Source: Cyanophyceae cyanobacterium
GTDB taxonomy: Bacteria; Cyanobacteriota; Cyanobacteriia; Cyanobacteriales; JBHJGN01
Assembly (NCBI GenBank): GCA_050331735.1
Contig: JBHJGN010000031.1
Span: 64,001 to 128,000, forward strand
Length of the DNA stretch: 64,000 nucleotides
Direction: 5' to 3'
In this document: positions 40,163-63,616 of the stretch, piece after piece
How the letters are laid out: each line of letters starts with the position of its first letter
Position numbering within the stretch: position 1 is the stretch's first letter
Program-made: the position numbers and the translations under genes
The notes under the pieces: generated by a model
Told to the model about the DNA's origin: nothing
What the model saw: the letters and a program-made list of their open reading frames with translations, nothing else
Databases searched by the model: none

Positions 40163-40531
40163 ATGCCTTCAGAGCGCTCTCAACCGATTAAAGTTAACCG
40201 CATTCTTGGAACTCAACCTCGTCTCGGACCTCTCCCTGCCGATCAAGTTCTGCCTTGGTCTCTATTCACTCTATTTTCCTACTTCATCTGTCAGGGATAC
40301 TACGACTTCGGCTGGCTGCCCATGGTGTTGCTAGATGGATGGCTCATTTCCACCTGGTGGATTCTCACTGGAGAGAGAAGCTGGCGTTTCCTGTCTAAGA
40401 TCTATCCTCCGGTTCCTCGGTGGGAGCGAGGTTGCCCCAAATACCACAGTTTTTTAGAAGATCACCGCTCATGGCACAAACCAAGAAGAAACTCGGCAAA
40501 AAGAGGGTCGGTTTCAAGAAGAACAAAGTAA
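40163..40531 (+). CDS. T4SS VirB3-like small membrane protein
   Basis: VNRILGTQPRLGPLPADQVLPW, two TMs, TWWILTGERSWRFLSK; directly precedes and overlaps the VirB4-like gene. Confidence 0.65.
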   Translation: MPSERSQPIKVNRILGTQPRLGPLPADQVLPWSLFTLFSYFICQGYYDFGWLPMVLLDGWLISTWWILTGERSWRFLSKIYPPVPRWERGCPKYHSFLEDHRSWHKPRRNSAKRGSVSRRTK

Positions 40532-43278: not shown

Positions 43279-43324
43279 GTAGGGATCGCCCGCTCAACAA
43301 GCTGGATAACTCAGGAGTATAGCG

Positions 43325-43777
43325 ATGTTTCAACAATTTAAAAGCCTACGCCGAATAGCCGTCGCCTTCCTCTTGCTGGCTGCTGCGACGGTAATTTTAG
43401 AGCGCCATTGGGCGATCGCTAATTCACCCTCAACCCTTCCACCACACGAGGAAACTATGTTTCGGTTTGAAAATTTCGATCGCGCCGGCAACGACCGAGA
43501 AATTGAGCAGGCAATCAAGAAACGGCTGCTTGACATGCATCCCATTGGTTCTGATCCTGATGAGCTAATCGAAAGTCTAGAAGCTGCTGAAGCTTACTGT
43601 CGCGATGAGTCATCCCAGGACCAAGAATTTTCTACGCATCTGTGTCGGTATCGATACCCTCTTGGCATTCCCGTCAGCAACCCTCGGTTTACGGCAGAAG
43701 CGTTTCGGTCAGTCACAATTTACTACGACGAAACTGGCATTGTTGATATTGAAGTGAGCGTTGCTCATACTGCATAG
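43325..43777 (+). CDS. Exported hypothetical protein (candidate immunity protein)
   Basis: AGGAG RBS; signal-peptide-like N-terminus; FRFENF...LLDMHPIGSDPDELIESLE..A.C...C.Y core with two Cys. Confidence 0.8.
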   Translation: MFQQFKSLRRIAVAFLLLAAATVILERHWAIANSPSTLPPHEETMFRFENFDRAGNDREIEQAIKKRLLDMHPIGSDPDELIESLEAAEAYCRDESSQDQEFSTHLCRYRYPLGIPVSNPRFTAEAFRSVTIYYDETGIVDIEVSVAHTA

Positions 43778-43822
43778 CTTTCATAGCTAAGAACATCCAG
43801 GATTGGAATAGGAGTGCGCTAA

Positions 43823-44698
43823 ATGGGACATAAAATCGAGGTCAGATCCTACGAAATTGACCAGCTAGACGAAACAGAGAACAATAATTGGTTTAATCGC
43901 GCTGTTGATGCAAGTCATGCTTTTATTGTGTATGCAGATGACCAAGGCAATGAGCAAATTCTGCGAGGCGGACCGAATCCAGAGACGGGCAACATTTTAG
44001 CGAATTACGGAGAATACAGTCAAAACGGTGTAGATGGAACGAACCCCGTTAGTTGGAGAGGCGAACCGCTGCGAGAAACACCAAGAGAAATTCGCTCTGT
44101 TGTGGTTGCTGAGGGAGGAGCAGAACTCGCCGCCGTTTTTGCCGCGATGAAGGAGCAGGCAGACGCAATTAATAAGGCACGAATTCCCTACATTGCTTGG
44201 GGACACAACGTCCAAAACAGTAACTCGGTTGTCGCTACGGTACTAGAAGAAGTTGGACTAGAGCCGAATTTTCCTCCGGGTTGGCACCCTGGGAGGAACG
44301 TCAATCTACTGGAGGAACATTTTCGGCAAGGAAATTCCAAACCAAGCAGCGCTCCTGCCTCTAGCCCATCACCAAAGGGTGAATCTAAGCCCACTGCTCA
44401 GCTACCTGCTAATGCTTACGAACAGGTTGCTGCTTACGTGCGTAATGCTTTAGCTAGTCCCAATTTAGCTGGATTAGCACTGGACAACCGCATTGCCCAA
44501 GCACTGATCAATGGCGAGACTGATCAAGCTGCTGCCAAAATTTTGAGCCAAAGTCCTAACGCACAGCAGGCAATGCAAGCAGGAAAACAGCCGGAAGCCT
44601 TTAGCTACATTCAAGCCAGACTAGAGCAGGGAACACAGTTAAATAATCAAACAGCTCAGGTGCAGTCGAACCGCGAACCAGAAATGAGGCTAGAGTAG
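43823..44698 (+). CDS. Hypothetical protein, candidate T4SS effector
   Basis: AGGAG RBS; no signal peptide; N-terminal domain SHAFIVY..ILRGGP..PY...QNSNSVVATVL..PG, Pro/Ser linker, helical Gln-rich C-terminal domain. Confidence 0.8.
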   Translation: MGHKIEVRSYEIDQLDETENNNWFNRAVDASHAFIVYADDQGNEQILRGGPNPETGNILANYGEYSQNGVDGTNPVSWRGEPLRETPREIRSVVVAEGGAELAAVFAAMKEQADAINKARIPYIAWGHNVQNSNSVVATVLEEVGLEPNFPPGWHPGRNVNLLEEHFRQGNSKPSSAPASSPSPKGESKPTAQLPANAYEQVAAYVRNALASPNLAGLALDNRIAQALINGETDQAAAKILSQSPNAQQAMQAGKQPEAFSYIQARLEQGTQLNNQTAQVQSNREPEMRLE

Positions 44699-44935
44699 GG
44701 CTTGCATCAAGCTTTTGAAGGGTTTTTGCTCTGAAAGACAAGGAAATTTCACAAAATCTATAACTAAGATAGATTAATTAAAGCTTTTATGAATATTGCT
44801 GCTATTGGCACCAATATTCTTTAACAAACAATATCAGAAAGCTATATTTGTAGACAAGAACCAGCGACATCAGCAGTTGTACGAGTTGACAATTGCTTTC
44901 ATATTTCCTCACTCAATTTCTTTAGGAGCCTGTAA

Positions 44936-45829
44936 ATGTCCAACCAACCAAAAGCTATCAGCATTAGGAGAACTCGTCGGGTGGCGATCGCTGGTAGCCT
45001 ATCGTTAATCTTACTAGCCTGGAGCGCTAAACCTGCTAAAGCCGGAATCTTTGGTGGTTTGTTTGGCTACTTTACTAACTATATTGAAAATTTTGTCAAC
45101 GAAGTCGCATCTTACTACATCGATTATGTAGACGATTTTATTGATTACGTCGAACTGGGTGCGGATGTTTTAATGGGCAAATTAGAAGAGCGTTTACCGA
45201 GCATGATTGCAACGACAGTATTAGGCGATGACAAATGGATCGATCCAGAAACCTACAGCCCAGGAGCACTGGGATTGCCTAGCCCCATTGAGTTGACAAC
45301 ACAGATTAAAAAAGATATCTACGAAGGCAATGCAGCTTCTTTAGGTCTCGAAACCACTGCTGGCGGACGAGCCGAAGAAGAAGCAAGACGCAGCGAACGA
45401 GCGTTATCTAAAGAGATTAGTGATGCTGTATATCTAAGTCAGGAAGCTCAGGAACAGCATCAGATTAATATTGAAGAGACTCAAGCTTTGGTAGAGAGAA
45501 CTAACGAAGTTTCTAAAGCCTCAGCAGGGCTATCGGAGAAGGCGGATGCTGCCAACTCTAGTCAAGAGGTGTTGAAGCTGTTATCGCAACAAATTGCCCT
45601 TGATTCTCGGCAAAATGCCGAACTAACCTCGCTTGTCGGCAGCTTGAAAACGCAGCATTTGATGGCAACGATGGTTGAGCAAAGTCAAGTGGCGGCAGTA
45701 ATCCAGCAGTCTGAGTATTTAGCTGGACTTTACAGAAGCGAGGGTCTGAAAAAACAGATTAGCGGTGCTAATACAATTAGAGCCGGAAAAAATCTTCAGG
45801 GCTACGCGACGTTTGTCGGAGGACTGTAG
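44936..45829 (+). CDS. Exported helical T4SS component (VirB5-like)
   Basis: Signal peptide ending PAKA; GALGLP, then Gln-rich coiled coil with SSQEVLK; lies between VirB4-like and VirB6-like genes. Confidence 0.6.
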   Translation: MSNQPKAISIRRTRRVAIAGSLSLILLAWSAKPAKAGIFGGLFGYFTNYIENFVNEVASYYIDYVDDFIDYVELGADVLMGKLEERLPSMIATTVLGDDKWIDPETYSPGALGLPSPIELTTQIKKDIYEGNAASLGLETTAGGRAEEEARRSERALSKEISDAVYLSQEAQEQHQINIEETQALVERTNEVSKASAGLSEKADAANSSQEVLKLLSQQIALDSRQNAELTSLVGSLKTQHLMATMVEQSQVAAVIQQSEYLAGLYRSEGLKKQISGANTIRAGKNLQGYATFVGGL

Positions 45830-45831
45830 GC

Positions 45832-45950
45832 GCTGGCGAATAAATTTGCGGCTACAAAAACCAAGTTTGTCTTCATAGATTCTAGACAATCAAGAGTTTA
45901 AGCAACCTGCGCGGCAGGTTCTGTTAGGGTGACAGCGGTTTTAGCCGCTA
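45832..45950. repeat. Degenerate MITE-like palindromic element
   Basis: GGCGAATAAATTTGCGGCTAC left end, internal hairpin AACCTGC-GCG-GCAGGTT (45904-45920), GCGGTTTTAGCCGC right end. Confidence 0.5.
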
Positions 45951-46059
45951 ATAACCTCAAAGTTAATGCAGATTTTCTGCCGTAGAAGCGTTAGTTTCTT
46001 GGCCAAGATGGGAACGATAAAAATGTAGCTGGTTCATAGTTGCTAGTGCCCTTGGACCA

Positions 46060-46785
46060 TTGATAATGATGAGATTTTTTTCTGTACGCCTAATCAGCAT
46101 AGCTGTTGTTCTGTTTCACCTTTCCCTACTAGGAGGAACGATGAGGCTGCCATCAGCACAGGCTCAATCTAACCCTCCTCTAAACTTTGACCCGACTGCC
46201 CCAACTCCTGCGCCAACTCCAACAACTTCCAATAACCAGGACTTCTTCTGCGGTCAGGGATGGGAATTTAATGGCTTTCCCTATGACTTGTTTGCCTGGG
46301 AGGAGATTCCTTGGGGTATGCCGGGAGATGAGTTTTTAAGAAGATACAAACAGCGAGTAGAGGAGTGTTCGTCAACAGTTTTTAGTGGTGAGCGAGGAAT
46401 AAATGCTACCCATTCATTTGAGAATAAGAGTCAGAAAGATCATACAACTGTATATTTTAGATTTCATGGAGAAAACAATACTCTTTCCGAAATTTATCTA
46501 AATCGTGTTCCCAGTTACATGAGAGATTATCTCTTGCAGCATTATGGAGTGCCTGCTCAAGCCAACTACACGCCAGTCAAAGTTCGTGTTGGTTGTGTTC
46601 GTGAAGGGATTGTCTGTCCTCCTGTCTTTGAATACCGAGGAGAGGAACTCTGGAGTGGAATCTGGCGGCTGTCAGAGACCTTCATTCAGTTAGGCACGCC
46701 CAATAGCATAACTATTAAACCCGTTGACTCTGACCTACAAAGTCGTCCTGTGTGCGATGAGTTTCTGATCTTCAAATTTTGTTAG
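46060..46785 (+). CDS. Exported hypothetical protein
   Basis: Signal peptide ending SAQA, Pro/Thr linker PTAPTPAPTPTT, Cys-containing globular domain; exact start uncertain. Confidence 0.7.
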   Translation: MIMMRFFSVRLISIAVVLFHLSLLGGTMRLPSAQAQSNPPLNFDPTAPTPAPTPTTSNNQDFFCGQGWEFNGFPYDLFAWEEIPWGMPGDEFLRRYKQRVEECSSTVFSGERGINATHSFENKSQKDHTTVYFRFHGENNTLSEIYLNRVPSYMRDYLLQHYGVPAQANYTPVKVRVGCVREGIVCPPVFEYRGEELWSGIWRLSETFIQLGTPNSITIKPVDSDLQSRPVCDEFLIFKFC

Positions 46786-48035
46786 CCATGCTTCCAGGAG
46801 TAGTAAAGTTTACTCATTTATCATTCTGGCTGCTGGTGCAAGCTGGAGATACTTGTGATGGCGCTGGTAATTTTGACCTAGATCTCTCGGATCAGTTTGC
46901 TGAGGATGTCACGGTAGCAGAAAAAGTCAAGGAGAGTTTTGATGGACTGTGGGATGTGGCGCTATCTCCTACCAGTTTTGTTTATAGTTCTCTCTCTGAT
47001 ATTGGTCTACTGTTAGCAGTAGTTACCGTTACTGTGTTTATAGTACGTTGGGGGCGGGAGTTATTAGAGTCTGGAATTTCCAGTAAATCGTTTGGAGAAA
47101 TTATTTGGCCCTTAGTTGTAGCAGTTTTCTTAAGTAACAATGGACAAATTCTCGCTAGCACGACTCGCGCTATGCAGAACTACGTTCAAGAGCAGGAGGA
47201 AACAATTGTCAACGGAGCGTTTCTGGATGTGTTTATTGGAGAAACTCTTGAATCGGCTTTTCGGCAGTTAGTTGGTATCACGACAGTTCCTTTGGGCATT
47301 GGCTCGATTTTAGCTCAGTGTACTAGTCACGAAAATCCAGCGTTTTGCTTATCAGGACCACCAGTATATGAAGGAGAGGAAATTGAGAGATTTGAGTCTG
47401 GGGCGCTTCAACAGGCAATTTGTGCTTTGAATCCTTATGTAGAATCAGGAGAAAATCCTAAATTAGCTCAGCTCAGCAAAGAACTCGAAAAAGAACAAGA
47501 GAAGTTACATTCAATCCTTAAAAACGAAGTGCCAGGTTCTTCTGATGAAGAAGATACTTTCACTGTAGGCATTCCGCCTGAAATATACAAACTTATGTCT
47601 GCGAGTGAGGATTCTGGGTTGATGCAGTTCTTTATGGGGTCTGGAGCCGCATTTGTGTGGTTGACTGAACTCGCACTATTTATTACTGCCCTACTTGGAC
47701 CTCTCGCTCTTGGCTTGAGCCTGCTGCCTGTTGGCGGAAAAGCAGTCTTCGCTTGGCTGACAGGCTTCCTCTCTGTTGCTTTTGCAAAGCTGTTTTATTT
47801 CATTTTGACGGGGCTATCTTCGATTGTGGTGCTCGATGCTATTCAGGATGTGTCCCTAACAGACTTTGTGGACTCGATTCTGGTGGGAATCTTTGTCGGA
47901 GCACTGGCACCGCTGCTTTCCTTGGCAGTGTGCGTGAGCGGCGGTCGAGCGGTATTTCAAAGTTTAGTCGGCTACGTAGTTCCGGCGGTTGATTCGACGG
48001 TGCGGCGGCGGCAGATTTATCGAGCAGGAAAGTAA
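46779..48035 (+). CDS. VirB6-like polytopic T4SS membrane protein
   Basis: IIWPLVVAVFLSNNG; C-terminal TMs ELALFITALLGPLALGLSLLPVGGKAVFAWLTGF...APLLSLAV..GG. Confidence 0.75.
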   Translation: MLAMLPGVVKFTHLSFWLLVQAGDTCDGAGNFDLDLSDQFAEDVTVAEKVKESFDGLWDVALSPTSFVYSSLSDIGLLLAVVTVTVFIVRWGRELLESGISSKSFGEIIWPLVVAVFLSNNGQILASTTRAMQNYVQEQEETIVNGAFLDVFIGETLESAFRQLVGITTVPLGIGSILAQCTSHENPAFCLSGPPVYEGEEIERFESGALQQAICALNPYVESGENPKLAQLSKELEKEQEKLHSILKNEVPGSSDEEDTFTVGIPPEIYKLMSASEDSGLMQFFMGSGAAFVWLTELALFITALLGPLALGLSLLPVGGKAVFAWLTGFLSVAFAKLFYFILTGLSSIVVLDAIQDVSLTDFVDSILVGIFVGALAPLLSLAVCVSGGRAVFQSLVGYVVPAVDSTVRRRQIYRAGK

Positions 48036-48059
48036 ACAGATAAGCATTTTTGTAAGGGA

Positions 48060-48818
48060 TTGAGGGCTGTGGTGCAGATACTTCCAGAGAAAAAATCGAG
48101 AAACTACCTAGCGCTGTTTGTGCTGCTTACCGTGATTATGCAGGGGGCGAGTGTGCTGCTGCTGCTCTTTCAGGGGGCAATTATCAATCGCCTGAGCAAA
48201 AACCCGCCCACTCTGGTACAGCTTGTGGATGGAGAATCGATTCGCGTCGAGCCGATGGATTACCTAGAGCGTACGCCCCAAACAATCCGCGAGTTTGTTG
48301 AAGATACCATGACCATGCTAATGACCTGGTCGGGGGAACTTCCGGTCGAGTCGGCGCAGGATGAAAAGGTGCCGAGGCGCGACCCAGGAGTGACGATAGC
48401 GACGGAATCGGGTCGCTCTCAAAGGATTGCCACCTCTACCTGGCAAGCAGGATTTGCTCTTTCTGAAGACTTTCGGGTTGAGTTTTTGCAGGAACTGACT
48501 CGCCTCACTCCTCAGCGAATCTTTAGCAGAAATCAGGATACGCAGGTTGTTTTGGTGATACTCGATTTGTCTGAACCGAAGAAGATTGAAGAGGGTAAAT
48601 GGAAGCTGGCAATGGTCGCTAACTTACTGTTTTTTAGGGACGGTAGTTCCCTCGGAGAGGGAGTCCCGTTTAACAAAGAAGTTTATGTGCATACTGTCGT
48701 TGCGCCAGAAGTGCCTGATGATGCGACTCCTCTAGCTCGGAAAATTTATCAGGTGCGACAAGCTGGCTTGGAAATCTACGCCATGCGTGATTTAGAGGCG
48801 GAGGAAATTTTGGAGTAG
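48060..48818 (+). CDS. VirB8-like bitopic T4SS protein
   Basis: One N-terminal TM, PPTLVQLVDG, RTPQTIREFV...MTWSG, ALSEDFR, FNKEVYV. Confidence 0.65.
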   Translation: MRAVVQILPEKKSRNYLALFVLLTVIMQGASVLLLLFQGAIINRLSKNPPTLVQLVDGESIRVEPMDYLERTPQTIREFVEDTMTMLMTWSGELPVESAQDEKVPRRDPGVTIATESGRSQRIATSTWQAGFALSEDFRVEFLQELTRLTPQRIFSRNQDTQVVLVILDLSEPKKIEEGKWKLAMVANLLFFRDGSSLGEGVPFNKEVYVHTVVAPEVPDDATPLARKIYQVRQAGLEIYAMRDLEAEEILE

Positions 48819-48911
48819 ATATACCTCTATAGAATGGGGGAAAAGAGTAAGGGAGAAAGGAAACTCAAAATTCGATAAAGTGGGGATACATAAAGTGACA
48901 GGGATCAAACT

Positions 48912-49478
48912 GTGACAACGCTGGTTAAGTGGACGGTTGAAGACTATCACCGGATGATTGAGGCAGGTATCCTCTCCGAACGACGCTGCGAGTTAATCGG
49001 AGGAAAAATCGTTGAGATGGCGCCGGAAGGACCGCTGCATCGGTTTATCAATGAAACGGTCGGTGACTATTTACGCCAGCAATTGGGAACTGCGGCTCTC
49101 GTTTCAGAAGCTCATCCCATTACTCTCGTAGATTCAGAACCAGAACCAGATATTGCCATTATTCAACCTCCTCGGAGTCGATACAGGAATCGCCATCCTG
49201 CCCCCCAGGATATTTACTGGCTAATCGAAGTTGCCGATACGACCCTTGCTGAAGATACAGGGGAAAAATTGACAGCGTATGCTAAAGCAGGTATCCCTGA
49301 GTATTGGGTCATCGACGTTCAGCGATCGCAAGTCAAAGTCTTTCGCCAGCCCCTCGAAGAGCAATACCGAAGCGAGACAACTGTGACGGCGGGAACAGTT
49401 TCGCCACTAGCCTTTGCTGATGTTGCCATTTCTGTAGAACGATTGTTGGGGGTAAGGAATAGCGAGACTCAGCTTTAG
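48912..49478 (+). CDS. Uma2-family endonuclease
   Basis: WTVEDYHRMIEAG, SEPEPDIAI, LIEVADTT, YAKAGIPEYWVID. Confidence 0.92.
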   Translation: MTTLVKWTVEDYHRMIEAGILSERRCELIGGKIVEMAPEGPLHRFINETVGDYLRQQLGTAALVSEAHPITLVDSEPEPDIAIIQPPRSRYRNRHPAPQDIYWLIEVADTTLAEDTGEKLTAYAKAGIPEYWVIDVQRSQVKVFRQPLEEQYRSETTVTAGTVSPLAFADVAISVERLLGVRNSETQL

Positions 49479-53666: not shown

Positions 53667-53710
53667 ATCAGAGCTAGTGAGAAACTTAATGAGTTGGAAA
53701 AAGGGAAGGG

Positions 53711-53803
53711 GGAAAGGTCAGCACAGCAAGTTTTTCCCTTTGCACCCCCAACTCTTGGTTTGTTTGGAGAACTATCTAACTACTTTCGGTCAATGGTATT
53801 AGC
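53711..53803. repeat. Family B repeat, copy 1
   Basis: Ungapped 93-nt match to 57484-57576 (77/93 by hand count; last 35 nt 34/35). Confidence 0.85.
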
Positions 53804-54069
53804 CCTTGCGATCAACAACTAGTGACTGTTGACTCAATACGAGCCTAATCTATTTTTGGTCAGTCAGCAGTAATACTGAGGGCAATTGTGTTGGGAATTG
53901 TCAAACTAGGCTTATTCCACTGTCAAATCATCTTTAGTCTTTCTGCTTCTGAAACATTAAAAGCAAGCAGGAAAAATTAGGGACAGCTCATTTTATGGGT
54001 GGAAGTTTTAGCAATCTGCAATAAATATAAACGCTTAATATTTAAAATTGCGAAATTGAGGCGGTAGAG

Positions 54070-57000
54070 ATGAAAACAGACTTATCTTCCCTGAAACCTT
54101 CTAACCCTGTTGCCACCCTCGTTTTTATCGATGCTGGAGTTAAAAATTATCAACAGTTAGTTGATGGTGTTATTCCTAAAGCGGAAGTATTTGTCTTAGA
54201 TGCAGCGGCTGATGGTGTTGAGCAAATTAGCCATGTTTTACAGCAGCGGCAGAATGTCGGAGCTGTTCATATCGTTTCTCACGGTGCGCCAGGTGGCTTG
54301 TACTTGGGTAACACCCGATTAAGTCTTGATACTTTCAGGCACTATGCCACTCAGCTACAGAAGTGGAAGGTAGTCAATCTCTTTCTCTACGGCTGTAACG
54401 TGGCTGCTGGGGACGCAGGTGAAGAGTTTATCGAGAAGCTGCACCAGCAGACAGGAGCAAGTATAGCAGCGTCGCGTCGAGTAATCGGTGACGGGTACTG
54501 GTTCCTAGATGTTAACCCTACAGGGACGACAGCACAGACCCCATTTGATGAAGCAGTTCTAGAAAGCTGGACAGGACGACTAGCGCTAAACATCAGCAAT
54601 CTCAGTAACTCATCGTATACTGAGCAAGACCCCGCTATTATCCTAGACAGTGATATCAGCTTCTCAGGTGGGACAAACTACAGCAGCGGCTATCTTGAGT
54701 TTAGTTTAAGCACCGCTACTGCGTCTGATTTTTTAAGTTTAGTTGCTGATGACAACATTTCTACCGCTAACAACCAGATTTCTATTGTTGCTAATACAGT
54801 TTATCTCGGCGATGGCAGCGAGGCAGCAGTAGTCGGTACCGTAGATTCAACATTCGACGGTCAGAATGGAAAAAATCTACGGATTAACTTATCCACTAGT
54901 TTTCCAAACGGTAATTTCAACATTGGCTCGCCTGAAGACACAACCATCACGAGTTGGACAACGGTAAACCAGCAGGTCAAATTTGGAAACGATACAATTG
55001 CTAACTTAACTACGCCCACCGACAGCACCATTCCCTCAGACTCTAATGGGGACCAAAACACTCCTTCTAGCCCAGGGACGATGACGACAGTCCTTGATGC
55101 TACACAGAACGACGGAGGCGGAAATTCTCTTCGGCTCGCCTCTACAGGAATTACTACTGCCGAAGGATATGATATCGTTCGCGGTCCATACGTTTACAGT
55201 GATACGGCTATATCCTTGTCATCTGGCGACCAGGTGTCCTTTGAATGGCAAGCTCAAGGGGGGGGAGATGCCTATGATATTTATGGCTACATTGTTGATA
55301 TTAACAACAATCACATCGAAACTATTCTAGATGAAACAGGCAGTAGTGAATCTGCTGCTACTACTTGGGCAACGGAGACAATTACTGTTTCCCAAGCTGG
55401 TGAGTACAAATTTGTCTTTGTTGCCGGTACTTACGACTATTCTGGCGGTAAAGCTGCAGGAGCACAGCTCTACATTGACGATGTAACAGTTACTCAATCG
55501 GTCCCGTCCGCAGTTTTCGACGATACTCATGTATCTGCGCTCGCTCAGAGAGTGCAGTACAACAATACCTCAGATAGTCCTGAAACCTCAAAAACTCTCA
55601 CTGTCTCCGTTCAAAACAGCGCTGATGAGATAGTAAGCGATACGGCAACCATTGATATTACGTTAGTAAACGATGCCCCCACTGCGCTTAGCCTCAGCAG
55701 CACCAGTATTAATGAGAACAGTGCGGCGGGAAGTGCAATCGGTACTTTCAGCAGCACTGACCCTGACGCGAGCGAGACCTTCACCTATACTCTAGTGGCT
55801 GGCACTGGAGATACGGATAACAGTGCCTTTACCATTGACAGCGACCAGCTTAAAATCATCGACTCCCCCGACTACGAAGCTAAGGATAGCTATAGCATTC
55901 ACGTCCGCACCACAGATAGTGAGAACGAAATCTATGAAGAAGCGTTTACTATCAATGTCAACGATTTTAATAAAACACCCACTGCTATTGCTCTTGATAA
56001 CAACCGGGTTAACGAGAATCAAAATAGCCGCACTCTCGTCGGTACTCTTTCTACCATTGATGCCGATGACGGCGACACTCATATTTACCAGCTCGTGGGT
56101 GGGGAGGAAGATACAGATAACAGTGCCTTTACCATCGATGGTAATCAACTGAAAACTAACACTCGGCTTAACTACGAAGCTAAATCCAGCTACAGCATTC
56201 GTATCCAAACCACAGATAGCGAGAGCGAAACCTACGAAAAAACCTTTACTATCAGCGTCAACAATCTCAACGAAATCCCCAGACTCAGTTTAATCAACAC
56301 TAATACCTCCTTAGCTGAAGACATCGATACCAGCACTAGGATTAAGGTAGCAGACATCCGCATCTATGATGATGGTTTAGGAGCAGAAACCATTGCCCTG
56401 AGCGGCCCTAATGCCGACCTCTTCGAGCTGGATGGGAGAAAACTCTTTCTCAAAGCCGATACTCCTCTCAACCATGAAACCGAAGCTGAGTTAAACGTGC
56501 AGGTCTCGGTCAACGACTCCACCATCGGCTCCACACCAGACGATACTGAATCCTTGGCAATCGCCATCAGCGATGTCAATGAAGCCCCCAGCCTCAGCTT
56601 CACTAACTCTACCGCTTCATTAGCCGAAGACACCGACACCAGCACTAGGATTAAGGTAGCTGATATTGTCATTAGTGATGATGCCCTCGGCAACAACACC
56701 TTAAGCCTCAGCGGGGAAGATGCTGAGAGCTTTGAAATTGACGACAGCGCTCTGTTCCTCAAAGCCAATACCCCCCTCGACTTTGAAACCCATCCTGAGC
56801 TATCGGTCTCGCTTAGCATCGATGATGCTACCTTGGGAGATGGAGCGGAAGCAACAGAATCCTACACCCTGAATCTGATTGATATGCCAGATGACGGCCT
56901 TGAAGGGGATATTAGCTTATTCTGGTCTAACCGCGCCACCGGAGAGAACCAGCTCTGGCTCTTCACGGGACTCCAGAGGCAGTCTGTGGTATTGCCCCTT

Positions 57001-57330
57001 ACCGATACAGATTGGCAACTGCGAGACGTCGGAGACTTTAACGGAGATGACCAGTACGACCTGCTCTGGCGACACTCGGCTACCGGAGAAAACGCTGTTT
57101 GGCTGATGAACGGCACTGACTTTATTCAAAGAAGTAGTTTGCGCTCTGCTTCCAACCTCGATTGGTCCCTGGTGGGCGCGGCAGACTTCAACGGAGATGA
57201 CAAAGACGACCTACTCTGGCGACACGCGGCTACCGGGAAAAATGCTGTCTGGCTGATGGACGGCACGACTTTTATGAGCAGCAGTTCTCTGCCAGAATTC
57301 TCTGGGGCTGACTGGTCTGCGGTTGTTTAA
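54070..57330 (+). CDS. Large extracellular protein: DUF4347 + beta-sandwich + cadherin-like repeats + FG-GAP repeats
   Basis: LVFIDAGV..HIVSHGAPG..LYGCNVAAG (DUF4347); NDAPT...DPD...DYEAK cadherin repeats; GDFNGDD..DLLWRH..TG.NAVWLM repeats. Confidence 0.9.
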   Translation: MKTDLSSLKPSNPVATLVFIDAGVKNYQQLVDGVIPKAEVFVLDAAADGVEQISHVLQQRQNVGAVHIVSHGAPGGLYLGNTRLSLDTFRHYATQLQKWKVVNLFLYGCNVAAGDAGEEFIEKLHQQTGASIAASRRVIGDGYWFLDVNPTGTTAQTPFDEAVLESWTGRLALNISNLSNSSYTEQDPAIILDSDISFSGGTNYSSGYLEFSLSTATASDFLSLVADDNISTANNQISIVANTVYLGDGSEAAVVGTVDSTFDGQNGKNLRINLSTSFPNGNFNIGSPEDTTITSWTTVNQQVKFGNDTIANLTTPTDSTIPSDSNGDQNTPSSPGTMTTVLDATQNDGGGNSLRLASTGITTAEGYDIVRGPYVYSDTAISLSSGDQVSFEWQAQGGGDAYDIYGYIVDINNNHIETILDETGSSESAATTWATETITVSQAGEYKFVFVAGTYDYSGGKAAGAQLYIDDVTVTQSVPSAVFDDTHVSALAQRVQYNNTSDSPETSKTLTVSVQNSADEIVSDTATIDITLVNDAPTALSLSSTSINENSAAGSAIGTFSSTDPDASETFTYTLVAGTGDTDNSAFTIDSDQLKIIDSPDYEAKDSYSIHVRTTDSENEIYEEAFTINVNDFNKTPTAIALDNNRVNENQNSRTLVGTLSTIDADDGDTHIYQLVGGEEDTDNSAFTIDGNQLKTNTRLNYEAKSSYSIRIQTTDSESETYEKTFTISVNNLNEIPRLSLINTNTSLAEDIDTSTRIKVADIRIYDDGLGAETIALSGPNADLFELDGRKLFLKADTPLNHETEAELNVQVSVNDSTIGSTPDDTESLAIAISDVNEAPSLSFTNSTASLAEDTDTSTRIKVADIVISDDALGNNTLSLSGEDAESFEIDDSALFLKANTPLDFETHPELSVSLSIDDATLGDGAEATESYTLNLIDMPDDGLEGDISLFWSNRATGENQLWLFTGLQRQSVVLPLTDTDWQLRDVGDFNGDDQYDLLWRHSATGENAVWLMNGTDFIQRSSLRSASNLDWSLVGAADFNGDDKDDLLWRHAATGKNAVWLMDGTTFMSSSSLPEFSGADWSAVV

Positions 57331-57430
57331 TCGGCTCCATCACGGAGCACCCATTGAATAGCGAGAAGAGGGAATTTTCCCTTTCCCCCAATCTATAAAT
57401 GAGTGCATCCACAACCAGGAACCGTCGTCT

Positions 57431-57576
57431 TATGCCAATTAGAAAAAGTCATCGGAGATGGGGGAAAGGGTCAGGGGGAAAGAGGAAAGGTAAGCACCGC
57501 AGCTCTTTCTCCTTGAACTTCCAATGCTTGGTTAGTTCGGGGAACTATCTGACTACTTTCGGTCAATGGTATTAGC
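57431..57576. repeat. Family B repeat, copy 2 (MITE-like, imperfect terminal inverted repeats)
   Basis: Matches 53711-53803; left end TATGCCAATTAGAAAAAGTCATCGGAGA resembles the reverse complement of the right end (about 18/28). Confidence 0.75.
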
Positions 57577-58759
57577 TAAAAGAATCAAAAAACTTTTCAA
57601 TGATTCTTTCATAAACACAGCAAAGCTCATACACATGAGCAATAGGAATATGCTCCCCCACCTGATGCATCGTATTATCCAACGGGCCATATTCAACCGT
57701 AACGCAGTGGGGCACAAGAAAACGGGCATCGGTAATTCCGCCATCGGTACTGAGACGGGGGCGACGGCCAGAAACCTCTGCCACCGCATCCTGCACAAGG
57801 CTGACAAAAGGATCTTCAGGATTCGTCCGAAATGCTTCCCCACTGACGCGGAAGCGAACATCGTACTCAACGCCATAGGACCGAGCAAGGGGTTCAATCG
57901 TGTCCCGAATGAGCTGTTGTAACCCATTCCCCGTTTGCTCGTCGTTAAAGCGGATGTTGAAGCGCAGATTAACGGCGGCAGGAATGACGTTTTCCGCACA
58001 GGGAGCTGTTTCAAACTTAGTAAATTCTAGATTAGACGGTTCAAACCACTCATTACCCTCGTCGAGAGGTAAATTTTGCAGCGCTGCTGCCATTGCCACC
58101 GCCGCCGGAACTGGATTGAGCACATTGCGCTGGTAGGCGACGTGTCCCTGCTTGCCTTTGATGGTAATAAAGGTATTGATGCTGCCGCGACGACCAATAT
58201 GAACGCAGTCGCCCATCTCTAGCGGGTTCGTCGGTTCACCCACTACGCAGGCATCAATCTTCTCGCCTCGCTGCTGTAGCCATTCCATCACGGGTTTCGT
58301 GCCGTTAATCGCTTCGTGCTCCTCGTCGCCCGTGATAATGAAGCTGAAAGACCCCTGGAAATCCTTCCTCTTCGCAAGCCACGCCGATACAGCAGCAATA
58401 AAGCAGCCAATTCCGGCTTTCATATCCACCGTGCCCCGTCCCCAGAGAATGCCGTCGCGGATTTCAGCCTTGTAGGGGTCGATATCACCCCAGCGCAGGC
58501 GATCGCCTTCTGGCACCACATCGGTATGTCCGGCAAAGGCGAGGTTTGGTTCGGCTGTTCCCAATCGGGCATAGAGATTATCCACTTCGTAGCTGCCGGG
58601 TTCGTTGTAAAATTTGAGGCGCTGGCAGGTAAAGCCGAGTAATTCCAGATGACGCTGCACCACATCCAACCCCCCGTGTCGATCCGGCGTGACGCTCGGT
58701 CTGCGGATCAGTTCTTGGGTTAACTTAACAGGATCGAAAACAGGAACATTGACAAGCAT
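57572..58759 (-). CDS. dapE: Succinyl-diaminopimelate desuccinylase
   Basis: LIRRPSVTP, NLYARLG, FAGHTDVVP, GRGTVDMK, TGDEE, VGEPT, GRRGS, GKQGHVAY, NVIP, FNIRFN, DARF. Confidence 0.9.
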   Translation of the reverse strand: MLVNVPVFDPVKLTQELIRRPSVTPDRHGGLDVVQRHLELLGFTCQRLKFYNEPGSYEVDNLYARLGTAEPNLAFAGHTDVVPEGDRLRWGDIDPYKAEIRDGILWGRGTVDMKAGIGCFIAAVSAWLAKRKDFQGSFSFIITGDEEHEAINGTKPVMEWLQQRGEKIDACVVGEPTNPLEMGDCVHIGRRGSINTFITIKGKQGHVAYQRNVLNPVPAAVAMAAALQNLPLDEGNEWFEPSNLEFTKFETAPCAENVIPAAVNLRFNIRFNDEQTGNGLQQLIRDTIEPLARSYGVEYDVRFRVSGEAFRTNPEDPFVSLVQDAVAEVSGRRPRLSTDGGITDARFLVPHCVTVEYGPLDNTMHQVGEHIPIAHVYELCCVYERIIEKFFDSFS

Positions 58760-58774
58760 GGCATCTCCTCAGAT

Positions 58775-59677
58775 TTAGACTGTAGACGGAGCAGTAGTTT
58801 GCTCAGTTACAAATTGCTTGTAAGCATCAATTAAACGAGTGGTGACAGGACCGAAAGGTTCAAAACGATACTCGTCAATCTCACTTACCGACTCAATCTC
58901 GCAGGTAGTCCCAGTGAGAAAGACTTCCTGCGCTTGGGCGAGTTCTTCTAGCTTGATGTGGCGTTCAATAACAGAAATCTCTAATTTCTCCGCCAATTTC
59001 ATAATAGTTTGCCGGGTAATGCCATTCAAAAAGCAATCCGGTATCGGCGTTAGCAAACTCCCATCGCGTACCAGAAATACGTTGGATGTGGTCGATTCAG
59101 CAATCAGCCCTCGATAGTCTAACATGAGAGCATCATCAAAGCCTTGTTGGACGGCTTCATCTTTGCTCATGGTGCAGATGGGGTAGAGACAAGCTGCCTT
59201 GCTCACCGTTGGTGCGGTCGTCGGATCGGGCTTGCGCCAGGGTACGTGGCGAGTCAGCTTCAGTGGCTTCTTGGTGTCAATATCAAATAGCGTCGTCGGG
59301 AATGACCAGGCAGCAATGCCAACGCAGATTGAGGTATCGGGGGCATATACCCGCAATCTTTCACTGCCGCGCCAAGCAAAATGGCGGATGTAGCCCACTT
59401 TAATATTTTCTCGCTCCAGCAGATTATTAGTGGCTTCGACAAGAGCATCCAGCGCATAGGAAATGGTAAAACCAAGAATTTCAGCCGATTGATACAGGCG
59501 CTCCAGATGTTCAGCTAACAAAAACGGCTTGCCGTTATAGATGCGCACTCCTTCAAATACACTACTAGCGTAATGCAGTCCGTGGGTGAGCGGGTGAATC
59601 GTGGCTTCTTTCCAAACAACTATGTTGCCATTCAGCCACAAAAACCCTTCCTTTTGATCGAACGGAAACAGAGACAT
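58775..59677 (-). CDS. Fold-type IV PLP aminotransferase (IlvE/BCAT-like; substrate uncertain)
   Basis: HGLHYASSVFEGVRIY, HLERL, SKAA (PLP Lys), LNGITRQT, EVFLTGT. Confidence 0.9.
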   Translation of the reverse strand: MSLFPFDQKEGFLWLNGNIVVWKEATIHPLTHGLHYASSVFEGVRIYNGKPFLLAEHLERLYQSAEILGFTISYALDALVEATNNLLERENIKVGYIRHFAWRGSERLRVYAPDTSICVGIAAWSFPTTLFDIDTKKPLKLTRHVPWRKPDPTTAPTVSKAACLYPICTMSKDEAVQQGFDDALMLDYRGLIAESTTSNVFLVRDGSLLTPIPDCFLNGITRQTIMKLAEKLEISVIERHIKLEELAQAQEVFLTGTTCEIESVSEIDEYRFEPFGPVTTRLIDAYKQFVTEQTTAPSTV

Positions 59678-59726
59678 AGAGAATCTTCTTTGGAGTGAAT
59701 TGTTCGACGTGATCGCTATTAATAAA

Positions 59727-59890
59727 CAGAGGGAACAGGAGTTTGCGTCGAACGGGGAAATTGTCCGGTGCGGGACGGGTAAGGGTTAAAGAACACAGAG
59801 TTAAGAAAACTAATTTATTCACCCTTTCCCCCTTCCCCTTTCCCCTTTCCCCGTCGCGGAGCGACTTCTTTCCCTGCGCCTGCGGCGCTA
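59727..59890. repeat. Family A repeat, copy 3
   Basis: TGTCCGGTGCGGGACGGG...AAAGAACACAG...TTCCCCGTCGCGGAGCGAC...TTCCCTGCGCCTGCGGCGCTA. Confidence 0.8.
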
Positions 59891-60742
59891 ATTCCGCAAC
59901 AGTTCGTTAATCGATGTTTTAGAACGGGTTTTGTCATCAACCGTTTTGACAATCACGTTGCAGTACAGGCTTGGACCCGGTGAGCCATCGGGAAGCGGTT
60001 TGCCGGGTAGGGTGCCGGGAACAACAACTGCATAGGGAGGAATTTCCCCGTAGAAAATCTTGCCAGTGGTGCGATCGACGATTTTAGTAGACTGACTGAG
60101 ATGAACGCCGATCCCCAAAACGGCTCCTTCGCGGACAATCACACCCTCAGCCACTTCGCTTTGACCGCCAACAAACACATTATCTTCGATAATTACTGGA
60201 TTGGCCTGAAGCGGTTCGAGAACGCCACCAATGACGACTCCAGAGGACAAATGGCATCCTTGGCCGATTTGGGCGCAGGAACCGACAGTGACGTAGCTAT
60301 CCACCATCGTTCCGGTATCAATATAGGCCCCGATGTTGACAAAGCTAGGCATTAGCACAACATCTCTCGCGACATAGGAACCGCGACGGACGACGCAATT
60401 GGGAACGGCTCGAAATCCAGCGCGAGTAAAGTCATCCTGAGTCCAGCCGGAAAACTTGGACGGCACTTTATCAAACCAGGGCGCTTCTTTGAGAGCCTGA
60501 GATTGCAGACCACTGGCGATGACGGCAGATTGATTCAAACGGAAAGACAGCAGCACAGCCTTTTTAAGCCACTGATTTACTACCCAGTCATTCCCGGATT
60601 TTTCAGCAACACGATATTGACCGCTATCTAATCCTGCTATGGCGTGTTCGACAGCCTCGCGTATTTCCCCTGACGTTTCTGCGTTAACGCTACTGCGGTT
60701 TTCCCAAGCCGTATCGATCGTTGTTGTCTGTGTTGTGTCCAT
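59888..60742 (-). CDS. dapD: Tetrahydrodipicolinate N-succinyltransferase
   Basis: [86 protein letters not shown]; start MDTTQ at 60742. Confidence 0.94.
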
Positions 60743-60837
60743 CTCGTCTTTACTTAAATCCACTACTGCTAATCTGAGAGTCAATTCTTCAAATGGTATC
60801 GCTAACGGGGAAAGGGGGGAAGGGGAGCGATCGCCGA

Positions 60838-62916
60838 TTACTGCTTCAGCGGTTGACCGTTGCTCCGTAACAGCTCTAACCCAGCGGCTACTACCGTTTC
60901 TGGCGCTATGTCTAAACACTCTAAACTGTAGGGACAGGTAAAGGCATAGCAGGGACTACAGACAGTCGGACGACGCAATAACTTTACGTCTGTTGCTCTC
61001 GGTTGCCACTGACACTCTAATTCAGTTCCGGCAAACAGAATCACGGCAGGGGTGCGTGTGGCATCGGCAATGTGCATGGTGGAGGTGTTATTAGTCAGCA
61101 CCAGACGCGCCTGAGCAATCAAAGCTGTGAGTTCGCTTAAAGTCGTTTTCCCAATTGAGTCAACGGCGCGATCGCCCAAAAATTCTAGCAGAGGACGAGA
61201 GCGATCGCGGTCTTTGGCTACGCCGGTGACGACCACTGGCCACCCTGTCTGTTCACTGAGTTGCCGTGCCGCTTCCGCAAAGCGCATCCCCTCATAGTTG
61301 CGAGACTGGCAGCTTGTCCAGGGGTTGAGCAAGATGTAGGAACCCGATACGCCGTTAGAGGTGGGGACATGCAGAGAGAGGTGGCGATCGCAAACCCTAA
61401 ACCCGACAGACTCGATCAGGCGAAGGTTGCGCTCAACTTGATGGGTGCAATCGGGGGCTGATGCCACCTCATGAGTGAGAATTCCCAAACCCCGCTCCTT
61501 TGATTCTCCTAGGCGAAGAGGAATTCCGGCCAGATAACAAATTAAGGCAGGCGGATGAGGACTCTGACTGAAGCTAGTGAAGATAATTGCCGCATCAAAT
61601 TGACGAGCAGCTAATGTATCAATCAGTTGCCATTCTCGTTCCGGGTCAAAATCTAATCGTCCTAAGTCTTGCCAGAGAACGCGCCAGGGCAGCACCTCAT
61701 CTACCCAAGGTAGGAGAGAAGCCGTGAGCGCACCGCCGGGACTCGCCATTAACGTTAGCTGAGCGTGAGGCAAATTTTCTTGAATCGCCCGCAAAGCTGG
61801 ACTAGTCATAATCACATCTCCAATGTTGTCCAGCCGCATCACCAGGATGTTACGAGCACTAGACCACTCTGAGAGCAACGATTGAGGAGGAAACTCTCTC
61901 TGACTCTCTACCCCCTGACGACTAACCACTAATCCCGTCCCTCTCAACACCCTCTCCGCCTCAGCCACGACTGCTTGAGGAGACACCGCTTCGGTGCAGG
62001 TCTCCCACTCAAAGGGACAAACCCCACTGTACCAGCAGGACTGTTGCGTAAAATTGCTAATGATGCGTTCCGGACATTCGGGATATCCCTGCAAATTAAT
62101 GTGAGGGGTGGGGTGCCCGTAGCGTTCGTGCCAGGAGGGACCAAACAGAGTAATCGTCGGTACATCAAGGGCGACGGCAATTCTCACCGGTCCTGTATCA
62201 GCGCCAATCACTAAATCGGCGTTGGCCATCGCTGCCGCTAGCTTTCGCAGGGTTCCTCGCGGCCAGACGTAGGCATCACCTCCAATGGCAGAGGCAATCG
62301 CTTGGGCTTGTTTATCTTCGCTTTCCACCACAAAGATGGTGCCGCCCTGCTGCTGAAGTGCTTTGCCGAGGGCAACAAACTTATCTGGGGACCAGCGCTT
62401 AATTGACATTCCGGCATCGGGAATGAGGAAAATGAGGGGACGGTATGCTGCTCCCAAAGCTTGTTCTGCCTGCGCCTTTTCTGTCCGAGAGAGTTCGATC
62501 AGCGGATGTTGGTTTTGAACACTATCGGGGGTAATTAACCCCTCTTCAAGCAGAATTTGGAGAAAGCGATCACCCACTCGCTGGTGCGCAGGAGGATTAC
62601 GCCAGAGATTGGTAACGGTTCTCTTGGCTGCCTTTGCAACAACGTCAGCAATGCCTTCGTAGTTGGTATCAGAAACAATTAAATCAAACCCTTGCTGAAC
62701 CAGTTCCTCAACGGCTTGACGAGCTTGGCCTTTTTGAGCAACGACAATTTGAGCGATTAGACTATTTTTCTGCAATAAGTCCGCAGCGGGGGAGAAAGTC
62801 AGCACCGTGAGGCGAGCTTGAGGATGACTGAGGGCCAAGGCTTTGATAGCAGGAAGGGCAATGAGTCCGTCTCCAATTCCGCCCAATAACTCTATAAATA
62901 GAATCTTCTGGATCAA
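60838..62916 (-). CDS. Tandem (two-domain) GT9 ADP-heptose-type glycosyltransferase
   Basis: Two GT9 units: GGIGDG...[13 protein letters not shown] and DNIGDV...[13 protein letters not shown], each ending in a Cys-rich tail. Confidence 0.88.
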
Positions 62917-62919
62917 GCT

Positions 62920-63201
62920 TTAATTCCGACTGACTAACTTACAGAAACGACTTTCTTCACCGCTTTTCAGCTTCTCTTGATAGAGAAAAGCGAGTTTGCT
63001 CTCTTCAAATTTTTCAAAGAACTCTTCCCATTCAATTCTCTCCAAGGAGTCTTGCCCACTGTAGCCCGGAAAATCGATGCGCAGCAGCCCCGGTCCATTT
63101 TCTTTGGTCCTTTTTACCGTTGCGGGGTAACCGCCTCGCTCTTCAACCCAGCGCTTGATCTCGTCGCGATCTGTCGTTTTTTTAGATTCTGCTTCAGACA
63201 T
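62920..63201 (-). CDS. Conserved small hypothetical protein
   Basis: TTDRDEIKRWVEERGGYPATV...LRIDFPG...IEWEEFFEKFEESKLAFLYQ; 3 nt upstream of the GT9 gene. Confidence 0.8.
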   Translation of the reverse strand: MSEAESKKTTDRDEIKRWVEERGGYPATVKRTKENGPGLLRIDFPGYSGQDSLERIEWEEFFEKFEESKLAFLYQEKLKSGEESRFCKLVSRN

Positions 63202-63616
63202 AAATAATTTCTCAACGCTGCTATCGAAGAGCATATATCGCTGAAGATAACAGTTCCCAATTGAGCGCTGCTTCTGCCTTTAGAATGAAGATAGCCTTCC
63301 TCCTATTTAGCTAAGCTTCAAGTCCACCATTCTGTTTGGAACTGTGTGCTATCGCTGAGCACACCTAGCTTTTCTTCCCGCTCATAAAAGCCCATTCTCA
63401 GCAACAACTGCGCTTAGCTAGTTCTTGATTATGCTCTTGGCTCTTTAGATTTCACTCCGCTGATAGAGACAAAATCTAGTGTTTTACTTTTAGATAAAGT
63501 ATAAGACTAAACAGACATACATGCATAAATATGCATTTCAACCGCCGTTGAGCTGAACTAGTTTCGGTTGCTGTCTTAGCGAGAGTTAGCTTTTAGAACA
63601 AAGGAATACGATTACT

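Follow-up and report, generated by a model that had tools for sequence, protein, structure and literature searches.

What does a set of genes for the succinylase branch of diaminopimelate (DAP) synthesis do in a cyanobacterium, and which enzyme carries out its aminotransfer step? The question was raised by a stretch of 64,000 nucleotides (the window) from the Cyanophyceae cyanobacterium assembly GCA_050331735.1 (contig JBHJGN010000031.1, positions 64,001 to 128,000). Here dapD, a gene for a fold-type IV aminotransferase of the branched-chain aminotransferase (BCAT) family, and dapE lie in a row. One paper, in the part consulted, presents DapL as the DAP route of cyanobacteria, plants and chlamydiae and discusses it as a narrow-spectrum target (PMC4176475). 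Our analysis indicates that a laterally acquired succinylase branch very probably took over from DapL. The fuller statement, in which this branch also uses the middle gene product, here named AT4, as its N-succinyl-DAP aminotransferase, is about an even call. Coordinates are positions in the window unless a contig or locus is named. G000 is the source genome, other G numbers are other sampled genomes, and f46, g108, g208 and g209 are family and genus labels.

The initial annotation described three intact, co-oriented genes with a 15-nt gap between the second and the third, and the open reading frame (ORF) list of the window confirmed this. All three genes are on the minus strand: dapD, a predicted tetrahydrodipicolinate N-succinyltransferase gene, at 59888..60742; AT4, encoding a putative N-succinyl-LL-DAP aminotransferase of 300 amino acids, at 58775..59677; and dapE, encoding a predicted N-succinyl-LL-diaminopimelate desuccinylase of 395 amino acids, at 57572..58759. 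A 210-nt spacer (59678..59887, minus strand) separates dapD from AT4, and the three genes may be co-transcribed. The mechanical dapD ORF (59888..60919) begins with a GTG at 60919, would encode 343 amino acids and reaches into the GT9 gene upstream. Since the cyanobacterial orthologues are mostly 285 amino acids long, translation most likely begins at the ATG at 60742, for a predicted product of 284 amino acids.

Family calls were made through NCBIfam and Pfam profile searches, using the curated cut-offs as thresholds. DapD scored 382.6 bits against TIGR00965, above the equivalog cut-off of 375.4, and 351.4 bits against NF008808 (cut-off 204). It contains PF14805 (THDPS N-terminal, 90.9 bits) followed by matches to the hexapeptide-repeat left-handed beta-helix families PF00132 and PF14602. 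DapE passed the equivalog cut-offs of both NF009557 (443.2 against 284 bits) and TIGR01246 (389.0 against 361.8 bits), and it carries the M20 catalytic domain PF01546 and the dimerisation domain PF07687. It aligns over its full length with solved DapE structures (8f8o) and retains HTD, DMK, DEE, GEP and the C-terminal His. We take these to be the metal-binding motifs of DapE. AT4 has the fold-type IV domain PF01063 (173.8 bits) and matched fold-type IV families only, with no class I or class III fold-type I homology in NCBIfam or Pfam. Its nearest family was NF005726 (PRK07544 BCAT), against which it scored 372.7 bits, under the cut-off of 396. Among the other ilvE families, it fell below the cut-off of NF005146 (266.5 against 279 bits) and was marginally above that of TIGR01122 (247.2 against 245.55 bits).

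The source genome was then considered as a whole. Its assembly is of the metagenome-assembled genome (MAG) type, with 99 contigs and 99.98% completeness, and its two Photo_RC genes of the PsbA/PsbD type identify it as a cyanobacterium. It has no DapL1, as the best TIGR03542 match reached 140.5 bits against a cut-off of 364.7. The best match to the DapL family TIGR03540 was 504.3 bits (cut-off 593.25) and came from a protein of the ubiquitous NF004611 type. No DAP dehydrogenase was found in this genome, and none of the DapC families TIGR03537, TIGR03538 and TIGR03539 was matched above its cut-off (best, TIGR03537, 270.7 against 453.6 bits). A second dapD-type gene is also absent, with a single match in the genome at E<=1e-30. 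The genome does carry dapA (TIGR00674, 303.5 against 206 bits), a dapB homologue, dapF and lysA. The initial annotation had left room for AT4 being the sole ilvE, and this is not the case, since a separate, native IlvE was found (NF005146, 356.7 against 279 bits). A native IlvE also accompanies AT4 in G133 and G449, and a search at E<=1e-30 gave no protein of this type in either G469 (76% complete) or G011, a genome without the cassette. The other named aminotransferases of the source genome are HemL, HisC, CobD, an AspAT-like protein, and proteins of the NF004611 and NF005613 types.

The distribution of these genes was examined in 61 genomes of the order to which the source genome belongs (itself included), 401 genomes of the class and 121 genomes of family f46; the source genome is the sole member of its own family in the collection. 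DapL exceeded its cut-off in 52 of the 61 genomes of the order, and dapD was found in none of the other 60. Three of the 401 class genomes had dapD (G000, G133 and G200), and the same three had the AT4 type. In f46, dapD was present in 21 of 121 genomes (17/22 in g108, 3/5 in g209 and 1/2 in g208) and the AT4 type in 19, each of them among the 21. The two dapD genomes without an AT4 match, G515 (89% complete) and G476 (91% complete), both have dapD at a contig end. AT4 without dapD did not occur in the sampled 401 and 121 cyanobacterial genomes. DapL was detected in 87 of the 121 f46 genomes, in none of the 22 from g108 and in none of the 21 dapD carriers. DapL (TIGR03542) yields the same product as the cassette would, LL-DAP, but it is a one-step fold-type I enzyme and is missing from the source genome as well as from these 21. 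The closest proteins are publicly named as belonging to Leptothoe, Adonisia, Leptolyngbya sp. PCC 7375 and “Cyanobacteria bacterium” MAGs.

Five other genomes of the order sample stood out in the same searches. G018, G024, G052 and G057 have neither DapL1 nor dapD, and each carries a third class-I aminotransferase scoring 573-583 bits against TIGR03540, the DapL2 family with a cut-off of 593 bits. Cyanobacteria seem here to have replaced DapL1 in a second, different manner. G002 (96% complete) has neither DapL1 nor dapD, nor the third TIGR03540-like aminotransferase.

The gene order is conserved elsewhere, as the initial annotation had wondered, in other cyanobacterial genomes of f46. AT4 directly follows dapD in 17 f46 genomes and in the source genome (18 genomes). 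Four further dapD loci end at a contig edge, and no locus had a different gene after dapD. In 14 of the 17 wide f46 loci, and in the source genome, dapE comes after AT4. No dapE was found within about 4.7-4.9 kb past AT4 in G479 and G488, and the contig of G491 stops 486 nt past AT4; in all three genomes dapE is on a separate contig, and the dapD-AT4 pair is therefore the more stable part of the cassette. Within g108 the flanks are conserved: genes for a kinase and a Tll0287/HAMP protein lie on one side, and the opposite side has Uma2-like, P450 and aldo-keto reductase genes. The flanks differ among g108, g208, g209 and the source genome, which means that the unit has been kept in four or more genomic contexts.

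Where did the cassette come from? The initial annotation had noted an alphaproteobacterial look and suspected that the genes were foreign to cyanobacteria, and both suspicions were borne out. AT4 is 72-83% identical to the proteins of its cyanobacterial clade and 52-58% to the next tier; the corresponding values are 78-87% and 65-72% for DapD, and 78-88% and 47-54% for DapE. For all three genes the next tier, which holds the nearest outside relatives, bears alphaproteobacterial names, and the motifs quoted in the initial annotation are indeed present, the pattern shared with alphaproteobacterial homologues being HGLHY[AG]S[SC]V. Quick maximum-likelihood trees gave one cyanobacterial clade per gene, each with a Shimodaira-Hasegawa-like approximate likelihood ratio test (SH-aLRT) value of 100. 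The cassette resembles the proteobacterial succinylase branch in that its DapD and DapE are clear orthologues and dapD precedes dapE in the same orientation. It differs from the alphaproteobacterial dapD-dapE pair in its cyanobacterial host and in the fold-type IV aminotransferase gene between the two.

A dapD match was found in 162 of 201 alphaproteobacterial genomes, a count that includes G570, which is flagged as unpublished, and on which no other result depends. No donor bearing the same triplet was seen among 80 alphaproteobacterial loci of related BCAT genes and 34 dapD loci, and neither dapD nor dapE lay near the BCAT gene in any of the 80. The three-gene order is therefore not simply a copied alphaproteobacterial operon. 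The cassette has the appearance of a dapD-dapE pair from alphaproteobacteria that received a BCAT paralogue of alphaproteobacterial type between its two genes. This insertion would have taken place in a donor outside the sample or else after the transfer. Movement within the cyanobacteria may have followed. The LysA of the source genome is 63-66% identical to that of the f46 carriers and 66% identical to that of its own order, and its cassette proteins are 77-88% identical to their f46 counterparts. A quick tree of concatenated DapD and DapE placed the source genome with g208 and g209, beside g108, with weak support (80). These values would fit, without proving it, a secondary transfer in which the complete cassette passed from one cyanobacterial order to another.

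AT4 was compared with its relatives at the level of single residues, using 50 cyanobacterial (cassette-type) and 70 alphaproteobacterial sequences and E. coli IlvE numbering (P0AB80). The residue roles given here are those stated in the consulted portions of two papers. For E. coli IlvE, one of them, a review, lists the residues that contact pyridoxal phosphate (PLP) and names Y130, W127 and A259 as stabilising the bound substrate (PMC9309667). The other describes the hydrophilic rim of the large pocket as Arg97, Tyr31*, Tyr129 and the NH of Val109*, and reports that the Pro125-Glu136 loop moves upon substrate binding (PMC3907554). AT4 shares with NF005726 and E. coli IlvE the fold, the catalytic lysine (K160) and all 10 PLP-contact residues checked from the first list. 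It also keeps Y96, R98 and R45, the counterparts of E. coli Y95, R97 and R40. It differs in falling below the NF005726 cut-off, in being linked to dapD rather than standing apart, and in 23 sites fixed differently from the alphaproteobacterial sequences, the three substrate-holding positions and the new Arg109 and His99 among them.

None of the three substrate-holding residues is kept in AT4. Y130 is replaced by T129, W127 by F126 and A259 by T258 in at least 92% of the 50 sequences, and their counterparts are kept in at least 90% of the 70 alphaproteobacterial ones (hypergeometric P = 0.003 for replacement of all three among 150 alpha-conserved sites). P99H adjoins Arg98 (E. coli Arg97), and G/A109R adjoins the Val that, in the neighbouring subunit, contacts the distal carboxylate of glutamate through its backbone NH, according to the source consulted. 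G163C and M/L166P flank Tyr165, and a change of AA to TC follows Thr257. Together, a wider pocket and extra positive charge at the rim would suit a long substrate with two further carboxylates. Of the 150 cluster representatives that matched best in a set of 1.84 billion proteins, none had more than 4 of the 14 signature residues and none had His99. AT4 is under purifying selection similar to that on dapD and dapE. The median ratio of nonsynonymous to synonymous substitution rates (dN/dS) was 0.046 for AT4 (50/91 pairs), 0.040 for dapD (65/91) and 0.034 for dapE (51/91), after pairs with dS outside 0-3 or with no estimate had been dropped.

These data suggest a pathway in which DapA and DapB would produce tetrahydrodipicolinate, which DapD would open and N-succinylate to N-succinyl-2-amino-6-oxopimelate. 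AT4 would then move the amino group of glutamate onto the 6-oxo group, giving N-succinyl-LL-DAP (the DapC reaction). DapE would strip the succinyl group, and the resident DapF and LysA would complete the pathway. The DapC reaction is normally performed by fold-type I enzymes. The proposed reaction and pathway position of AT4 are identical to those of ArgD (class III) and DapC (class I); these are fold-type I enzymes without homology to AT4, which may play the part of DapC without belonging to those families. The support for AT4 as a DapC analogue is circumstantial and consists of its strict co-occurrence with and adjacency to dapD, the purifying selection on it and its remodelled pocket. In its fullest form, the explanation would have a BCAT-derived fold-type IV enzyme recruited as N-succinyl-LL-DAP aminotransferase by opening of the pocket (W to F, Y to T) and addition of the rim Arg and His. 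The cassette would have displaced DapL in a marine/benthic filamentous clade and then moved as a unit between orders. We see the arguments for and against this form as evenly balanced. The loss of DapL may have preceded or followed the acquisition.

Several findings weigh against a role for AT4 in this step. The source genome has an ArgD (TIGR00707, 531.9 bits), and E. coli ArgD is described in the consulted part of a review as bifunctional and able to perform the DapC reaction. A linked aminotransferase is also not a requirement of the branch, as alphaproteobacterial dapD and dapE work without one (the two genes are immediate neighbours at 29 of 34 loci, and an AT4-like gene was not seen there). 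By a narrow margin, AT4 also still scores above the TIGR01122 ilvE cut-off. In one of the 19 f46 genomes with the AT4 type, G482 (L174), its gene has a lone in-frame TAG at the conserved Glu260 codon (TGT-TC-E motif), with conserved sequence beyond it; this premature stop could reflect either dispensability or a recent pseudogene on the one hand or a MAG error on the other. The pocket roles, moreover, were transferred from E. coli IlvE by alignment. The stem branch of AT4 (0.61) is intermediate between those of DapD (0.34) and DapE (0.97), and an acceleration specific to AT4 was rejected for this reason. These points leave ArgD as the main, live rival for the aminotransfer step. The cassette would then supply DapD and DapE only, with ArgD or another resident fold-type I enzyme as the aminotransferase, and AT4 would be a travelling branched-chain or other aminotransferase kept for an unrelated reason. 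However, AT4 was never found apart from dapD in the sampled cyanobacteria, adjoins it in every context, is held by selection as strong as that on its neighbours and has lost all three IlvE substrate-holding residues named in the source consulted; a native IlvE is retained as well, as in G000. We consider the ArgD explanation possible, if doubtful. The initial annotation had proposed a horizontally acquired module with a BCAT in the place of DapC; the acquisition and the replacement of DapL stood, and the DapC role, with ArgD present, is a candidate function that the comparisons of sequences favour circumstantially.

Two resident class-I aminotransferases also speak against AT4. One of them (contig C29, 24944-26092) passes the NF005613 equivalog cut-off (715.8 against 486 bits), and the NCBIfam name of that family is “LL-diaminopimelate aminotransferase”. 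All 12 cyanobacterial genomes tested have the NF005613 type, whether or not they have DapL, and it was rejected as a DapL substitute on this ground; the label is probably misleading. The other, a PRK07324-like protein of 374 amino acids, is encoded directly after dapA (contig C11, 144569-146652; L184, 5570-7656). Its ORF overlaps the dapA stop by 4 nt, with an in-frame ATG 6 nt past the stop, and it also resembles GntC and VioD. In the source genome alone, this enzyme could supply the DAP amino group in the manner of DapC or DapL. Homologues were found in 2 of 16 genomes tested (1/6 cassette carriers and 1/10 non-carriers), neither of them beside dapA, and the protein scores 62 bits to DapL and is under every NCBIfam cut-off. 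For these reasons it cannot account for the cassette clade at large, and we regard it as unlikely in the source genome too. DapD-like enzymes are known in tabtoxin synthesis, and the initial annotation offered as its alternative an acylate-transaminate-deacylate module of the TabB kind, serving an unusual diamino acid of a secondary metabolite. An AT4 pocket unlike that of any sampled BCAT would agree with such a module. But DapD and DapE are both over their equivalog cut-offs, and the scanned flanking genes are unrelated and change from lineage to lineage (genes for a kinase, a HAMP sensor, a P450, an aldo-keto reductase, a nitroreductase, GT9 and a cadherin-like protein). The scan of flanking ORFs, which covered the window and two f46 loci, showed no nonribosomal peptide synthetase, beta-lactam-synthetase-like or other secondary-metabolite genes. 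Because the carrier genomes have no other recognisable DAP route, we judge the tabtoxin-like alternative very unlikely.

A MAG-type assembly in 99 contigs also raises the concern, already voiced in the initial annotation, that the cassette is an assembly chimera or a contaminant, and unitigs from run X1 do break at repeats on either side of the AT4-dapE segment. The breakpoints, near 57.1-57.5 and 59.85 kb, are the only ones in the region and coincide with dispersed repeats. All X1 Logan unitig pieces across the whole region have an equal depth of 46-52x, and one of them continues from dapD into the adjacent GT9 gene. The assembly may itself have been built from X1, which makes this evidence not fully independent. 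The repeats are members of a family whose copies measure about 120-145 nt and have a G/A-rich core; in the window, copies lie at 57440-57580, 53690-53810 and 59800-59890. The copy at 57440..57580 (no strand assigned), which resembles a miniature inverted-repeat transposable element, abuts the dapE stop codon. This repeat, D3, has a second window copy at 53703-53803 and 134 BLAST matches in the genome. Members of the family gave 118-200 BLAST matches genome-wide, with about 200 for the core in the dapD-AT4 spacer (around 59800-59890), and the 11-mer GGGGAAAGGGG occurs 360 times in the genome against about 2.7 expected. Since the family of the breakpoint repeats numbers more than 100 copies in the source genome, the cassette has been colonised by the host's own repeats, which also occupy its spacers. 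The GC content is even over the window, and the same gene order is found in 17 other cyanobacterial genomes, on contigs of 7.7 and 8.2 Mb among others. A chimera or contaminant is scarcely credible in light of these findings.

The surroundings of the cassette in the window were surveyed as well. Directly upstream of dapD, at 60838-62916 (minus strand), is a gene for a 692-amino-acid protein with two tandem GT9 heptosyltransferase modules, which is not beside the cassette in other genomes. On the other side, convergent with dapE, a gene at 54070-57330 (plus strand) encodes a 1086-amino-acid protein with DUF4347, cadherin and FG-GAP repeats. An Rfam search at E<=1 over 57000-63500 for riboswitches or other RNAs gave only a chance miRNA-like match, and a promoter and terminator scan found no more sites than in shuffled sequence. 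Farther away, at 37287-39038 (minus strand), lies a VirD4-like coupling-protein homologue (94 bits, below cut-off), followed at 40420-49478 (plus strand) by a run of ORFs without NCBIfam matches. The VirD4-like gene and this run may be what is left of a conjugative element, some 8 kb away from the cassette and with hisZ in between.

No report of cyanobacterial dapD or dapE, or of a fold-type IV DapC, was found in the literature searched, which was not exhaustive, and the consulted portion of the Leptothoe genome paper (PMC8225149) does not mention the pathway terms searched for. The findings bear on how these organisms make DAP and on how their genomes are read. A whole cyanobacterial clade, together with the source genome, dispenses with DapL, and this provides a clean natural case of the displacement of a pathway by a transferred module. 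If AT4 is indeed the aminotransferase, the cassette would also be a case of non-homologous enzyme recruitment in which the substitutions that changed specificity can still be read, and AT4 would be the first analogue of DapC that is not a fold-type I enzyme. There is also a risk for automatic annotation: pipelines would name AT4 “branched-chain-amino-acid transaminase”, in line with the public names of its relatives, and an unrelated, ubiquitous enzyme “LL-diaminopimelate aminotransferase”, and both labels would obscure the real pathway.

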